A stretch of 56,053 bases of DNA, taken from an archaeon BMS3Abin17 (GTDB lineage: Archaea; Nanobdellota; Nanobdellia; Pacearchaeales; GW2011-AR1). The stretch spans positions 1 through 56,053 of the forward strand of contig BDTJ01000035.1 of the NCBI GenBank assembly GCA_002897655.1, read 5' to 3'. Shown here one piece after another: positions 2,239 to 56,053 of the stretch (the first letter of the stretch is position 1; each line of letters begins with the position of its first letter). The translations under genes and the position numbers were made by a program. Below the pieces are notes generated by a model. That model worked only from the letters and a program-made list of their open reading frames with translations, ran no database searches and was not told the origin of the DNA.

Positions 2239-3108
2239 CTAATCCTCTTCTGCTGTCCACCAGTCAAGGTCAGGAATATCTGCTTCTATTTTTTTTGCCT
2301 TGCAATATCCTTTTGCCAATAGATAAAATATAACCCCTAAACTTCTTGAGTTTTTGTTGTTTCCAATTATAATCTGGTCAGTTCCTTTTGAGAAATTATT
2401 TGTGTCACAAATCATCAAAACCTTTTTCCTTACATTCAGAGTATCATTAAGAGCGTTTCTGTCAAGCCAGGAGTCAGTTACAATTGTTAATTCATTCTCA
2501 AAAAAATCAGGAAGTTGGGTGTTTGTCAGGATTCCTGCAGGATATTTTTTAGTAAAGACTCTTATTCCTGTTAATCTTGAAAACATTTCTGCTGCTTTCC
2601 ATCCAACCTGCCTCTTACATACAAGGATTACGTCTTCTGGAGCAAATTTTGAAAGATATTCAATTCCTTCTTTTAATTTCTCATCAATTAAATCTGTATT
2701 AAAAATAGCTAATCCATCTGCTCTTCTTCTATAAACAAAAGCTCTCATATCAGGAGTTACAACCTTTGTCCCGAGATAAATTCCTGCTTTTACATATTCA
2801 TCAAGTGGAATAAGCATGTCTGCTCTTTTTTTAAGCTTAATCTGTTCTTTAAGTTCCTTTGTTGTAGGCCCTTCACTAGAAATCTTCTCCTTTAATTTTT
2901 TAGCCTTCTCTAGAAGCTCTTTTTTCTTTTTCTCAATATCTAATGGCTTTTCTGTTTTTAGAGATTCCTTTTCAGCGGCTTTCTCTAAGGCCACAGAATC
3001 TTGTTCATTTTCTGATTCTGTGCTGCCAAAATTCTCTTTGGAATTTTTAGCATCTTTTCCTTTTAATTCTTCTTTTACTTCTTCAGCATCAGCTTTTTTC
3101 TTTGCCAT
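2239..3108 (-). CDS. rps2: 30S ribosomal protein uS2 with a long charged N-terminal extension
   Basis: YVKAGIYLGTK...DMRAFVYRRRADGL, AGILTN, DTNN, GNNK motifs. Confidence 0.95.
   Translation of the reverse strand: MAKKKADAEEVKEELKGKDAKNSKENFGSTESENEQDSVALEKAAEKESLKTEKPLDIEKKKKELLEKAKKLKEKISSEGPTTKELKEQIKLKKRADMLIPLDEYVKAGIYLGTKVVTPDMRAFVYRRRADGLAIFNTDLIDEKLKEGIEYLSKFAPEDVILVCKRQVGWKAAEMFSRLTGIRVFTKKYPAGILTNTQLPDFFENELTIVTDSWLDRNALNDTLNVRKKVLMICDTNNFSKGTDQIIIGNNKNSRSLGVIFYLLAKGYCKAKKIEADIPDLDWWTAEED
2989..3054 (-). repeat. Twin-hairpin palindromic element inserted in frame in rps2
   Basis: Minus strand CTAAAAATTC-caaaga-GAATTTTGG cag CACAGAATC-loop-GATTCTGTGG; encodes DAKNSKENFGSTESENEQDSVA. 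Confidence 0.75.
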
Positions 3109-7148: not shown

Positions 7149-7849
7149 TCTTTACCTCCGACTTCTTTTAGTGCTTTCTTTTGGACTTCATAGATTTTCT
7201 TAGTTGCTTTTCCTGCAAGCTCAACAGCTTCATTTAATTGCTTTGTCCCAATCTTGCCATCTAATTGAATATGCGTGATTTTTCCTTCATGAGTCATTGT
7301 AATTGGAATATCTGTAGCCCCTTCTCCTTCTTCCCAATCTTCTTCTTTTTTTGTCAAGTCAGTAACTAATTGTTTGTCTAACTTGCCTATTGAAACACTT
7401 GACACCAAATCCTTCATAGGTATTCCTGCGTGTGCAAGAGCCATTATAGCAGCATTTATTCCAGCACATCTTGTTGATGCATCTGCTTGTAAGATATGTA
7501 TATGAACATCAATCACCCTGTTTGGATAATTGTCAATCATAACAACAGGCTCTAAAGCCCACTCAGTTATCTTGCTAATCTCAGTGCTTCTTCTGCTTGG
7601 ACCAGGTCTTATTCTGTCTGTAACTGAAAAACTAAGCATGTTGTAATTGCATCTCAGAGTTCCCTTTGCAGAATTTCTCTGGTTTCGGGGATGATGTTCT
7701 TTTGGACCATAAACAGCAGCTATTGCAACAGTATTTCCAAAAGAAAACATTGCACTTCCATCAGCATTAGGTATAACTCCGACTTTCGCACTTATAGGTC
7801 TTAATTCATCTGGTTTTCTTCCATCTGGCCTTTTAAATGTTTTTGTCAT
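7145..7849 (-). CDS. rrp41: Exosome core subunit Rrp41
   Basis: RPDGRKPDELRPI, ADGSA, VYGPKE, PSRRSTEIS, QADASTR. Confidence 0.96.
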   Translation of the reverse strand: MTKTFKRPDGRKPDELRPISAKVGVIPNADGSAMFSFGNTVAIAAVYGPKEHHPRNQRNSAKGTLRCNYNMLSFSVTDRIRPGPSRRSTEISKITEWALEPVVMIDNYPNRVIDVHIHILQADASTRCAGINAAIMALAHAGIPMKDLVSSVSIGKLDKQLVTDLTKKEEDWEEGEGATDIPITMTHEGKITHIQLDGKIGTKQLNEAVELAGKATKKIYEVQKKALKEVGGKE

Positions 7850-22187: not shown

Positions 22188-22301
22188 ATGAAACCAACAA
22201 AATTAAAAACTTCAAGAACAAAGTTCTTGACAGTCCCGGAAATTTTAATTTCCGAGATTTTGAAGTCCCATTTTAAAGGGAAAAAAAGATATTCCAAATG
22301 A
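22188..22301 (+). repeat. Twin-hairpin leader element with uORF coupled to rad50
   Basis: ATGAAAC repeated at 22188 and 22298; hairpins TCAAGAAC/GTTCTTGA and CGGAAATT/AATTTCCG; 37-aa uORF ending in an ATGA overlap. Confidence 0.7.
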
Positions 22302-28698: not shown

Positions 28699-28712
28699 TT
28701 TTAAAAACCAGC

Positions 28713-28787
28713 AAAATCTTTGCCCCTGCGTCTGTGCGTAGGCACAGTTTAGATTTTGTGGCTTAAAAACCTCAAGGTTTTTAAGCA
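28713..28787. repeat. Intergenic twin-hairpin element
   Basis: CAAAATCT..CTGTGC-gtag-GCACAG..AGATTTTG then GCTTAAAAACC-tcaa-GGTTTTTAAGC. Confidence 0.65.
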
Positions 28788-28806
28788 TTTTTTCCCACCA
28801 CCTAAT

Positions 28807-29054: not shown

Positions 29055-29285
29055 ATGACAAATATAACTCTCTCGATTAATAATGAAGTATATAAAAAAA
29101 TGCGTAAATATTCCGAGATAAAATGGAGTGAATTTGTAAGAAAAATGATTAAAAAAAGAATTGATGAGTTAGAAAAAATTGAAAATTATCCAGATAAAGA
29201 GAGCATTATGACAATGTTAGCTTCTGAGGAAACTCTAAAAAAAGATTGGGATAATGAATCAGATGAGAGGTGGAACAATGTATAA
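29055..29285 (+). CDS. RHH-type antitoxin
   Basis: MTNITLSI..EVYKKM...EIKWSE..R; overlaps the toxin gene. Confidence 0.8.
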   Translation: MTNITLSINNEVYKKMRKYSEIKWSEFVRKMIKKRIDELEKIENYPDKESIMTMLASEETLKKDWDNESDERWNNV

Positions 29286-29610
29286 TCAAAAAGATATTAT
29301 TCTAATTCCATTTCCATATTCTGATTTAACACTCTCCAAAAAAAGACCGGCCTTAATTATCTCTAATGAAAAGATAAATAAGATGCAGGATAGAATTTGC
29401 TGCCTTGTAACTTCCAAAGCCCATAAAGATGATTTAGTAATAACAAAAGATTCTTTTGAACAGGGAAGTTTACCCTTCAAAAGTTTTGTAAAGCCCCATA
29501 GGATATTTACAATCAATGCAAATATAGTGATAAAGAAATTCTGCACAATAAATGATGGATTTCACGACAAAGTAATTAAGAGCATTAATAAATTTTTAAG
29601 AAGAGAATAA
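29278..29610 (+). CDS. PemK/MazF-family toxin
   Basis: DIILIPFPYSDL..SKKRPALIIS, VTS; likely start ATG 29278. Confidence 0.9.
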   Translation: MYNQKDIILIPFPYSDLTLSKKRPALIISNEKINKMQDRICCLVTSKAHKDDLVITKDSFEQGSLPFKSFVKPHRIFTINANIVIKKFCTINDGFHDKVIKSINKFLRRE

Positions 29611-29664
29611 TTATATTAAAATATTTTTCCACAACTTTAAAAACTAGTTTTTCCATTATATATT

Positions 29665-29789
29665 ATGAAACACAATGAAAACAGGAAACACTAAAAAACC
29701 TTCGGTTTTTGGTGCTACGAAAATCTCTGATTTTCGTGGTTTTCAAGCATTTCATTTTTAAGGAAGGTGACAAAAAAATGAAGCACAAT
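29665..29789 (+). repeat. Start-duplicating twin-hairpin element before the presenilin-like gene
   Basis: ATGAAACACAAT (29665) vs ATGAAGCACAAT (29778); CACTAAAAA..TTTTTGGTG, CTACGAAAATC-tct-GATTTTCGTGG; TTCATTTTT/AAAAATGAA stem around the SD GGAAGGTGA. Confidence 0.8.
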
Positions 29790-53700: not shown

Positions 53701-53805
53701 TTTTGTTTTATCTTTTACTCTCTTTAAAGGAGGTATTCTTGGAGAAAAATCTATGTGAATTCTAGGATAATCCTGTATTTCCATCTGTTCCATTTTAAAT
53801 CTCAA
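50782..53805 (-). CDS. Type IV pilus/secretion ATPase (VirB11/FlaI/TadA family) containing an intein
   Basis: TIRKF, GGTSSGKTT, SIED/TREL, RQNPDYVIVGEVRG, GH..STIHA. Confidence 0.95.
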   Translation of the reverse strand: MRFKMEQMEIQDYPRIHIDFSPRIPPLKRVKDKTKVDVRYCLIAPFAYVHIYWNPKIFELAYEIEEPLLDKEEKKYKEEIVNAMRDMINFDVVIEKNQDKLLEYIDKRLKLLTIELGINISYETYKKIYYYLCRDFIGFNETEPFLRDFFVEDIECNGVNTPVYIVHRIYRNIKSNLEFKKNDELESFVEKLAQRCGKYISYSNPILDGSLPDGSRVNATYTKDITSKGPTFTIRKFTKTPWTPPQLIGFNTLSPEMLAYLWLLVEYKMNILITGGTSSGKTTLLNAIGFFIPPEARVVSIEDSVTGDSRIIINKDGEIKNITIKEFVDDKIDAEVMSLDKNGKIKWVRPSDYIKHHSEKDIYEITTSTGRKIKVTQDHSLFSLGEDNSLVEIKPTELRERESFIAVPRSLPIKGKEIKEINLMDNLSVFEEDFLQGDPVKKIFEKHSLKDFNIRKEKYRWWKKKNIIKIKDFANLNIDFSYEELRNLKIKSKNTSSIPVIFKINKEFLEFCGLWLGDGSYDSRNKNVVIASNQDIECREIIKKIAGRLKLNFSVMNDKETSIRIHSTVFYKFMKNTLKFKGYSKTKKIPDFICNLSNEQIKQFIRGYFSADGTVKKHEISCASQSYSLLEDLQTLFLRLDIISRINDFDRKDKCINMSISSSENIEKFKEIGFLQERKNSKMNLLNKKAHHAKSDVIPLSINKIHELNRLSRIRLQYGYLKGLQNMGRNYLQRIAPAGSEFNDLSHNDILWDMVKKIRKISSGKTEVFDLSIPKYEKFLCNNFFVHNTRELNLPRENWLPSVVRSATGLGGLGEVDLFTLLKSSFRQNPDYVIVGEVRGKEASVLFQGMASGHSSISTIHADSVDTVIKRLETPPINLSPTLLNVLDCVCIMTHAIVNKQETRKLREIVEIVNVNPDGVAITNTPFVWNAAEDQFYFKKNSKIFEKIRMRYGLNSEELEIEFRRRVQLIYNLFRMKIFGFDEIQDIVSQYYKNPEAILRKFNVEDK
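51442..52896 (-). mobile_element. 485-aa intein with LAGLIDADG homing endonuclease
   Basis: SIED|SVTGDS...TQDHSLF...GLWLGDGS...GYFSADGT...FDLSI..FVHN|TREL. Confidence 0.95.
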
Positions 53806-54337
53806 AGTCTATTATTGTTTTATTTTGATTTTTACCATTATGGGTGATATATAGCTTATATTGAGAGGGGGATTTGGTTATTGTTTTTAGTTCATCTTCT
53901 CCTTTGTAAGTTATGTCATACATTCCGCTATAATTCCTGGTCAGGGTAACCCTGTTGAATTCACCTTTCTTCTCTGTGTATAATATTAAATCTCCATATT
54001 GAATGAATTCTCCTGGTTGGCTGTATTCACTTTTACTATCCATCTCAAAATAAATCATATCTGAAACACCATCAATATTTAAAACACCTTTTTTAATTTC
54101 CAAATCAATTAATCTTTTGTTTCCAGCACCCCCCTGATCAAGAGATAAAATAATTGAATCAATTCCTTCTAGCACTTTTATTGATTGCTCAATTATTGCA
54201 TTGTCCTGTATCTCTTCTATCTTGGGTTTTGCAAAAGTAAGGACTAAACCAATCATCACAAGAGCTATTAAAGTATAAATTAATGTTTCAATCCATATTT
54301 GGCCCCTCTTTCTAAAAGTTTTTCCTCTTTTTTTCAT
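53795..54337 (-). CDS. Pilin-like protein (class III signal)
   Basis: RKRG/QIWIETLIY + hydrophobic helix; likely start ATG 54337. Confidence 0.8.
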   Translation of the reverse strand: MKKRGKTFRKRGQIWIETLIYTLIALVMIGLVLTFAKPKIEEIQDNAIIEQSIKVLEGIDSIILSLDQGGAGNKRLIDLEIKKGVLNIDGVSDMIYFEMDSKSEYSQPGEFIQYGDLILYTEKKGEFNRVTLTRNYSGMYDITYKGEDELKTITKSPSQYKLYITHNGKNQNKTIIDFEI

Positions 54338-54411
54338 TTTTAAATTTTTGAACCCCAAAATTAAGACTGTGCTTGCGCACAGAACACACTAATAATGTTG
54401 TAGGTTTTCAT
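54335..54411 (-). repeat. Start-duplicating hairpin leader element
   Basis: ATGAAAA at 54411 and 54337; uORF MKTYNIISVFCAQAQS*; CTGTGC-gcaa-GCACAG hairpin shared with the 28713 element. Confidence 0.55.
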
Positions 54412-55852: not shown

Positions 55853-55914
55853 TTCATCACCTTTTTATATCTTTATTATGTTTTTTTATGTTTTTAAATA
55901 TTTCTTAATTAAAA

Positions 55915-56046
55915 AGAAATCTCCATCTTTGAAGATGGAGTGATGATTCTCCACTAATTATTTATTCTAGAAAATATTGATTATAAGAGCCGAGATACTC
56001 GGCTCCATGAATGTTTCAATTAGTTGGAACTTTCTAGAATAAATAA
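55915..56046. mobile_element. Structured IS200/IS605-end-like element (may continue past the window)
   Basis: AGAAATCTCCATCTT-tg-AAGATGGAGTGATGATTC; 16-bp inverted repeat 55958-55973/56031-56046 enclosing GAGCCGAG-ata-CTCGGCTC. Confidence 0.55.
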
Positions 56047-56053
56047 ATGTTTG

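Follow-up and report, generated by a model that had tools for sequence, protein, structure and literature searches.

A small, non-autonomous, MITE-like element has probably inserted at the start of a signal-peptide-peptidase (SPP; presenilin-homolog) gene of a DPANN archaeon, duplicating its ATG and regenerating the gene behind a new leader. The host has a small genome, assembled as 1.09 Mb in 44 contigs with 31.8% G+C, and the gene lies in a stretch of 56,053 nt that was analysed as a whole (the window). A 101-nt twin-hairpin element separates the upstream start copy ATGAAACACAAT from the downstream start copy ATGAAGCACAAT, and the orthologous loci of the nearest relatives show the site without it.

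A start duplication flanks a twin-hairpin element

The original prediction had placed a TATA word at 29636–29643, two 12-mers and a 101-nt insert before the protease gene, and all of them are found there (Table 1). The two 12-mers agree at 11 of 12 positions; as had also been claimed, their A/G difference is synonymous, and MKHN is read from each copy. Gene starts across the genome were profiled from the upstream regions of 960 ORFs of at least 100 codons, which were crudely called. With the ATG left out, the next nine bases of the two copies match at 8 of 9, and a match as good occurs at one of the 960 gene starts, which is that of the gene itself. The start duplication at the protease gene is beyond chance. 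The last 3–4 duplicated bases (CAAT, AAT or AAW) stand before the element in other copies too, at genes without these bases, so the true target duplication may be 8–12 nt long; it was perhaps lengthened in the protease gene by chance or by a preferred CAAT.

From left to right, the element consists of an outer stem, two hairpins, a T-rich anti-start, a purine-rich tail with a Shine-Dalgarno (SD)-like word, and an A-run that touches the ATG. Its 101 nt hold no transposase gene, their reading frames give short peptides only, and across the whole window there were no Rfam matches above the gathering score. The insertion adds 113 nt, as a result of which the copy at the protease gene is not in-frame. 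The upstream ORF (uORF) that begins at the vestigial ATG has nine codons (MKHNENRKH; stop at 29692–29694) and ends 86 nt before the real start.

The predicted fold of the insert has an energy of −28.9 kcal/mol (z = −3.2), and none of 200 shuffled sequences folds as well. Both hairpins are enclosed by the outer stem GAAAAC/GTTTTC; in a further weak predicted stem, over the real start, the anti-start TTTCATTTTT pairs with AAAAAATGAAG, leaving GGAAGGTGA in the loop. The anti-start stem around the SD that the original prediction described is therefore present in the fold, but it is not gene-specific: 201 of the 960 gene starts pair with this anti-start as well or better, through the same A-run. 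When the anti-starts of six copies were ranked against all gene starts, their own genes came at positions 201, 441, 960, 408, 379 and 960 of 960, and gene-specific pairing was rejected for this genome, the stem being a generic one.

Table 1. Coordinates of the insert at the protease gene and of other copies of the element. Plain positions refer to the window; positions with a contig prefix lie elsewhere in the assembly.
Feature	Position	Strand	Basis
Twin-hairpin stretch of weak similarity, lying in-frame within the variable N-terminal extension of rps2	2993..3056	−	nhmmer, E = 0.016–0.056; Pfam S2; alignment of N-termini
Type C copy at the start of a Rad50-like gene; duplication ATGAAACCAA / ATGAAACTAA; 37-codon uORF stopping on the real ATG	22198..22293	+	covariance model R1
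Type B copy in reverse orientation, between the stop of aCPSF1 and the start of the gene that follows	28705..28793	−	
Ancestral promoter word AACTTTAAAAAC, 20 nt before the vestigial ATG	29633..29644	+	identical 12-mer in 9/94 orthologous loci
Vestigial gene-start copy ATGAAACACAAT, upstream half of the target duplication	29665..29676	+	sequence
Type A twin-hairpin element, 101 nt	29677..29777	+	covariance model R1, 117 bits; nhmmer
Hairpin 1 (CACTAAAAAACC..GGTTTTTGGTG)	29689..29714	+	consensus fold; compensatory changes in 43 aligned matches
Hairpin 2 (CTACGAAAATC..GATTTTCGTGG)	29715..29739	+	consensus fold; compensatory changes
Anti-start TTTCATTTTT; predicted partner, the A-run and AUGAAG of the real start	29750..29759	+	fold
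SD-like AAGGTGA in the element tail; GGTG from −12	29764..29770	+	match to 16S 3′ end
Downstream start copy ATGAAGCACAAT	29778..29789	+	
Intact signal-peptide-peptidase / presenilin-homolog gene, 295 aa	29778..30665	+	Pfam PF06550
In-frame copy within archease, 21 extra residues in the last loop	46775..46845	−	nhmmer
Partial type B copy immediately ahead of the start of gene 53795–54337 (−); TTTTCAT on both sides	54342..54404	+	
Type A copy before the presumed DNA polymerase II small-subunit (PolD small subunit) gene	C38:30350		nhmmer
Type A copy before a 157-aa gene	C18:30554		nhmmer
Type A copy before a secreted-protein gene	C32:22103		nhmmer
Type C copy, in-frame near an N-terminus	C31:58382		R1
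Type C copy at the start of a gene	C44:20991		R1

Orthologous loci without the insert

The protease gene matches PF06550 with E = 1.6e-14 over profile positions 2–279 of 283, making it full length from the ATG at 29778; the downstream half of the duplication makes up its first 12 nt, and orthologs align from residue 1. The gene is present in 40 of 41 related genomes, and a metagenome scan added 80 loci, none of which exceeds 74% identity. Of 99 loci, 93 were usable, having at least 60 nt of upstream sequence and an alignment that begins at residues 1–3. The protein starts at the position of the downstream ATG in all 93, with MKHN in 69 and MKHK, MKHT and similar starts in the others.

The promoter word AACTTTAAAAAC precedes the ATG in 9 of 94 orthologous loci, at a distance of 20 nt in eight and 21 nt in one; relatives that start the gene directly at the first ATG, as the original prediction implied, do exist. 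In the window, this distance is kept to the upstream ATG copy, and the real start lies 133 nt behind the promoter word. A FastTree tree of 94 proteins places the window's gene with L174 (support 0.92) and then with L136 and L162 (support 0.76). These three nearest relatives show the empty site, all of them being without the element; in L162, the promoter and 20 nt are followed by ATGAAACATAAT. When the 99 loci were scanned with both element models (nhmmer), a single one, the metagenome locus L108, proved to contain element-like sequence. Comparison of the orthologous sequences thus points firmly to an insertion with duplication of the start.

No empty-site allele was present in the contigs of three metagenome runs (X2–X4); all carry the insert, with no skipping joint, which suggests that the insertion is fixed in the sampled population. 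A further run (X5) held short pieces of a relative only, one of which diverges after the promoter, where the 30 letters visible are not usable as evidence.

The neighbourhood of the gene also differs from that of its relatives. Between a Fuseless-like membrane gene and the protease gene, positions 29055–29610 of the window contain two ORFs, one like an RHH antitoxin and the other like a MazF/PemK toxin. Relatives have the protease gene directly behind the Fuseless-like gene or aCPSF1, and the toxin-antitoxin-like pair therefore looks inserted in the window.

Promoter geometry suggests a leaderless gene that gained a leader

Across the 960 genes, TATA-like hexamers lie at −29, −28 and −27 in 167, 97 and 78 cases, respectively, and at most other positions in about 8–20. 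Placement as sharp as this, peaking at −29, marks transcripts whose 5′ ends coincide with the ATG or lie beside it. SD-like four-letter words are 3–4-fold enriched at −14 to −9, and the 3′ end of the 16S rRNA reads ..GGATCACCTCCT. TTTAAA stands at the modal TATA position, −29, relative to the vestigial ATG at 29665, and the TATA-like TTTAAAAA at 29636–29643 lies inside the promoter word. The real ATG at 29778 has GGTG at −12, and the stretch from −22 to −3 forms a duplex of −11.9 kcal/mol with the 16S end. Orthologs use both modes, with a TATA-like word at −31 to −26 in 28 of 93 loci and an SD-like word at −16 to −7 in 30 of 93. The original prediction, that a leaderless gene was converted into a leadered, SD-served one, is well supported by the promoter geometry of the orthologs together with TTTAAA at −29 and GGTG at −12, from which we infer both the transcriptional start site and the use of the SD.

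The proposed course of events is as follows. The element, which has two conserved hairpins and carries no gene, inserted 8–12 bases past the first base of the start codon, and the duplicated target, containing the ATG and the next three codons, regenerated the complete gene downstream. Transcription would still start from the old promoter, now firing at the vestigial ATG, to give an mRNA leader of 113 nt that consists of the start copy and the element. The 5′-terminal AUG would yield only a 9-residue peptide, and the protease would be translated as a second, internal cistron from the AUG at 29778 via the SD-like AAGGTGA of the tail, which lies at the genome's standard distance from that AUG.

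Transcription could instead begin inside or after the element, leaving the mRNA leaderless or short-leadered and the upstream copy silent. The T/A-rich TTTTTAAGG at 29755–29763 within the element is a candidate promoter for such a message, but it begins at −23 rather than at the −29 to −27 where this genome places its TATA words, and transcription from it would start inside the coding region. Moreover, the conserved ancestral promoter is intact, and a leaderless mRNA would have no use for an SD at canonical distance, making an internal promoter very improbable.

A repeat family at gene starts and within genes

The genome contains about 20 copies of the element (nhmmer matches with E < 1e-4 in 1.09 Mb). 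Beyond the copy at the protease gene, at least seven others lie at gene starts with start duplications, and some copies are in-frame within genes. Type A comprises four full copies found with nhmmer, each directly before a gene's ATG and each with an ATG just upstream; the gene behind C38:30350 is one that we take, from its sequence, to be the DNA polymerase II small subunit. Type B copies have the hairpin 1 of type A and a longer second arm, and in ORFs they read NTKK..FGATKSK..RRGKDFVG. At least nine copies span ORFs, all in one orientation and one frame. About half of the in-frame copies fall within the first ten codons of their ORFs, indicating that the family leans towards gene starts. 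The covariance model R1 added three type C copies, at 22198–22293 of the window, C44:20991 and C31:58382.

In-frame inserts in archease and rps2 had been named as homologs of the insert at the protease gene. For archease the homology stands: the type B model finds both the protease copy (E = 3e-6) and the archease copy (E = 1e-6). The archease insert is absent from all 11 aligned orthologs, and no clear flanking duplication is seen around it. For rps2 the similarity is weak (E = 0.016–0.056), and the twin-hairpin layout was seen by eye. Further, the type A model finds type B copies with E of about 1e-5; the two models cross-match, and the copy at the protease gene ties in-frame and start-site inserts into one family, as had been proposed. 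Two other locations were observed. In the spacer of the rRNA operon, a type B copy comes just behind the tRNA and ahead of the 23S rRNA gene (G000 C3:10861-10939, L029), and an ORF of 317 residues contains two in-frame copies (G000 C22:7175-7265 and 7526-7609).

The hairpins were compared across eleven genomes, this one included, in an alignment of 43 R1 matches that is model-fitted and includes some opposite-strand matches of the same loci. Standard pairs fill 93.2% of its cells, 20 of the 21 pairs have changed on both sides, and none of 500 shuffles reaches this level; when the partner is slid by one column, pairing falls to 56–64%. The hairpins, maintained through compensatory change, are what the element family conserves. 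One U-G pair is common to all four type A copies, favouring a structure on the given strand.

Displaced genes and their uORF or SD

Start duplications are found at the DNA polymerase II small-subunit gene (ATGAATAC), at the C44 gene (ATGGTTGA / ATGGTAGA) and at the window gene 53795–54337 (TTTTCAT). The start of a 508-aa gene carries a reverse-orientation copy (C38:93459-93565) with a perfect 13/13 duplication, AAACACAATGAAA, from −7 of the ATG. Apart from this one and the 11/12 duplication at the protease gene, duplications are 7–10 nt long and imperfect. Those of the sister copies are singly weak, with own-gene ranks of 14–43 of 960 for three copies and a non-significant result for C32. The two longest duplications, AAACACAATGAAA and that of the protease gene, share nine bases (AAACACAAT), an overlap that may be the mark of a target preference.

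Six forward copies were compared for the way in which their genes could be translated. In five, uORFs of 31–39 codons run through the element and stop at −20, −17, +1, +1 and +4 relative to the real ATG, and these copies pair weakly with the 16S end (0.8 to −5.7 kcal/mol, versus −11.9 for the protease copy). The protease copy is the only one of the six with an early-stopping uORF and a strong SD. Its tail, AAGGAAGGTGAC, shows changes towards GGAGGTGA when set against the sister tails; the C32 tail reads AAG-AAGATAAC, and that of L108 reads AAAAAAATAAC. These differences suggest that a displaced gene may stay translated by one of two routes, either through an SD or through ribosomes passed on by a long uORF. 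The second route is closed to the protease gene, because of the element's frames its duplicated ATG lies in the only one that contains a stop, and the lack of this route would probably explain the strong SD.

Instead of being merely tolerated, the element may alternatively be kept as a regulatory leader, either a translational switch or thermometer whose anti-start stem would hide the SD-led start, or a transcription attenuator acting via the hairpins and U-runs. We consider this decidedly unlikely. The stable fold (z = −3.2) with a stem over the start, the compensatory hairpin changes, the G-U pairs that favour one strand, and a strong SD that evolved or was kept in the protease copy's tail alone would all suit such a role; however, its host genes have no relation to one another (protease, PolD small subunit, Rad50-like, secreted protein, archease), the anti-start pairs as well with 201 of 960 starts, 98 of 99 ortholog loci are without such a leader, and there is no Rfam match.

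Copies in related genomes

Model R1 has matches in 11 of 61 related genomes. In the more distant genomes, most matches are without flank duplications and without an adjacent gene start; the flank-repeat test on 33 R1 matches is underpowered, a best 10-mer identity of at least 9 being reached in 13% of mismatched pairs.

The metagenome locus L108 (L108:256-445) is an SPP ortholog whose leader has a homologous 3′ part, AGCATTTCATTTTTAA..ACAAAAA, abutting the ATG. The leader has lost most of the hairpins, and beside the promoter TATA word stands a second copy, of type B and reversed. L108 is far from the window's gene (rank 51 of 93 by distance), and the common clade of the two holds 69 of 94 tips. 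Its leader is either an independent insertion at the same spot, which would fit targeting, or goes back to an old insertion that was lost many times.

The secY gene of G024 (L055:1460-1680) is preceded by a start copy, a full element, a second start copy and a hairpin-less remnant, which leads into the true start. Its anti-start is a perfect 13-nt inverted start copy, equalled by none of 960 gene starts, and it is the only copy with a gene-specific anti-start among those ranked. In G040, a tRNA gene with a long variable arm (L056:1464-1659) has a 115-nt intron that is a member of the twin-hairpin family with an A-rich tail. ARAGORN found no tRNA there at default settings and found one when introns were allowed, calling it Thr(tgt), for which the intron would be oddly placed; a Ser(UGA) identity, which puts the intron at the canonical position, seems more probable.

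With a family member serving as a tRNA intron, removal of the insert at the protease gene has to be weighed as well, either by splicing or by ribosome hopping between the two CAC AAT codons, with the duplicated codons as conceivable take-off and landing sites; in either case the true start would be the upstream ATG. This is extremely improbable. A bulge-helix-bulge, defined as two 3-nt bulges separated by a 4-bp helix at both junctions, is absent, and the flanks form by eye a 6-bp helix, a 6x5 internal loop and another 6-bp helix. Moreover, in-frame copies always keep one open frame, which argues for translation and not removal, and the regenerated start has its own SD.

Movement of the element

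The genome has nine PF01797 matches (Y1, HUH transposase), and a multi-copy IS200/IS605-like Y1 element ends many of its contigs; the left end of this element is the right end of the window (55891–56053). Neither the end hairpin of the resident Y1 element (CTCCATCTT..AAGATGGAG) nor the inverted repeats around four DDE transposase genes resemble the twin-hairpin element. No TnpB-type match was found in the genome, and no partner transposase among its Y1 and DDE genes. A second Y1 gene (G000 C1:1500-2519, L177) has GTCCC..GGGAC hairpins on both sides and outer inverted repeats, a layout like that of a REP/RAYT 'REPtron'.

Duplications begin 0–2 nt from the ATG in the six forward copies and at −7 in the reverse copy C38:93459, and selection alone would permit offsets of −9 to 0 for a 12-nt duplication. 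The A-run within 0–2 nt of the ATG in all six forward copies is not predicted by a random staggered cut, and it agrees with another origin, in which a leader cassette was copied from another gene start by template switch or recombination at short homology (ATGAA, and A-rich codons like the element's left end). Several target starts do resemble the element's left part (C32 ATGAAACAAAAGAAAATC, G024 secY ATGGCTGATTTAAGAAAT, C44 AAAAACACT); the secY tandem, with its hairpin-less remnant and its inverted start copy without equal among 960 starts, and the same 3′ leader at the same spot of the unrelated SPP ortholog L108 would also be accounted for. Copying is nevertheless the less likely origin, though not a negligible one, the other candidate being a staggered cut with a target preference: the two clean duplications of 12–13 nt fit an ordinary staggered cut, that of C38:93459 is reverse and runs from −7, and likeness among lysine-rich starts is expected in an AT-rich genome. 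Extended homology between the left arm and the gene start was sought by local alignment, which was not discriminating in this AT-rich genome (ranks 8 to 352 of 960).

Insertion with a target duplication remains the preferred reading of the protease gene. A broader one, plausible yet tentative, is that the family represents portable leaders of DPANN archaea, which home to first codons, duplicate starts, and carry a long uORF or an SD. Homing would perhaps rely on ATGAA/ATGGN-type starts or on copying between starts, the movement would be unlike known transposase footprints, and the same family would give rise to in-frame peptides and tRNA introns. If the start bias reflects targeting rather than survival, then the mechanism by which the element moves is an undescribed one.

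Discussion

The protease gene offers an unusually clean before-and-after case, in which a selfish hairpin repeat appears to rewire gene expression without breaking the gene. On this reading of the sequence, a gene with a leaderless mRNA would have become the second cistron behind a structured leader. One repeat family has met three fates: in-frame inserts in essential proteins, start-site inserts and, in a relative, a tRNA intron. Further, the difference between the protease copy, with a short uORF and an SD, and its five sisters, with long uORFs and no SD, provides a testable rule for displaced genes. Full-text literature searches listed no work on hairpin repeats that duplicate archaeal start codons.

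In REP/BIME sequences with RAYT, and in palindrome elements derived from IS200/IS605, it is the hairpins and not the sequence that are conserved. The present family shares this hairpin conservation, and its genome has Y1 transposases, one of them flanked by REP-like hairpins. Y1 elements, however, insert without a target duplication and beside a fixed word of 4–5 nt, whereas the element described here has a duplication of 12–13 nt and hairpins unlike those of the resident Y1 elements. Assignment to the Y1 substrates (IS200/IS605, REP-type) was rejected on these two grounds.

Prokaryotic MITEs such as the Correia type can change the expression of a neighbouring gene, a capacity that the present element would share. 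With 101 nt, no transposase gene and about 20 dispersed copies, the present element has much of the build of a MITE. It differs in lacking clear terminal inverted repeats at both ends that would match a parent IS; its GAAAAC/GTTTTC stem is subterminal, and the A-rich tail lies outside it. No parent IS with matching ends was found among the Y1 and DDE genes of the genome, and the bias to first codons is strong. Small size, multiple copies, structure and target duplications are shared with the Correia/NEMIS, ERIC and BOX elements, as described in the passages of PMC10969869 that deal with MITEs.

Rickettsia palindromic elements (RPEs; Ogata et al. 2000, reviewed in PMC10969869) are in-frame hairpin repeats of a reduced genome; in the passages of PMC10969869 devoted to them, they are short, have no gene of their own, and often lie in-frame in unrelated genes, to which they add a conserved peptide. 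The same passages on RPEs and MITEs make no mention of a start-site mode with a duplicated start codon or a supplied leader. The in-frame copies described here likewise lie in unrelated genes of a small genome, keep one conserved frame and leave the genes unbroken, and their NTKK..FGATKSK.. peptide, as in archease, is a parallel to that of RPEs. The two differ in host, which is here an archaeon, and no relation in sequence was seen, with Rfam giving no match in the window. They differ further in that the archaeal family has a second mode, at gene starts, where the start codon is regenerated and the tail of the element gives an SD or a long uORF.
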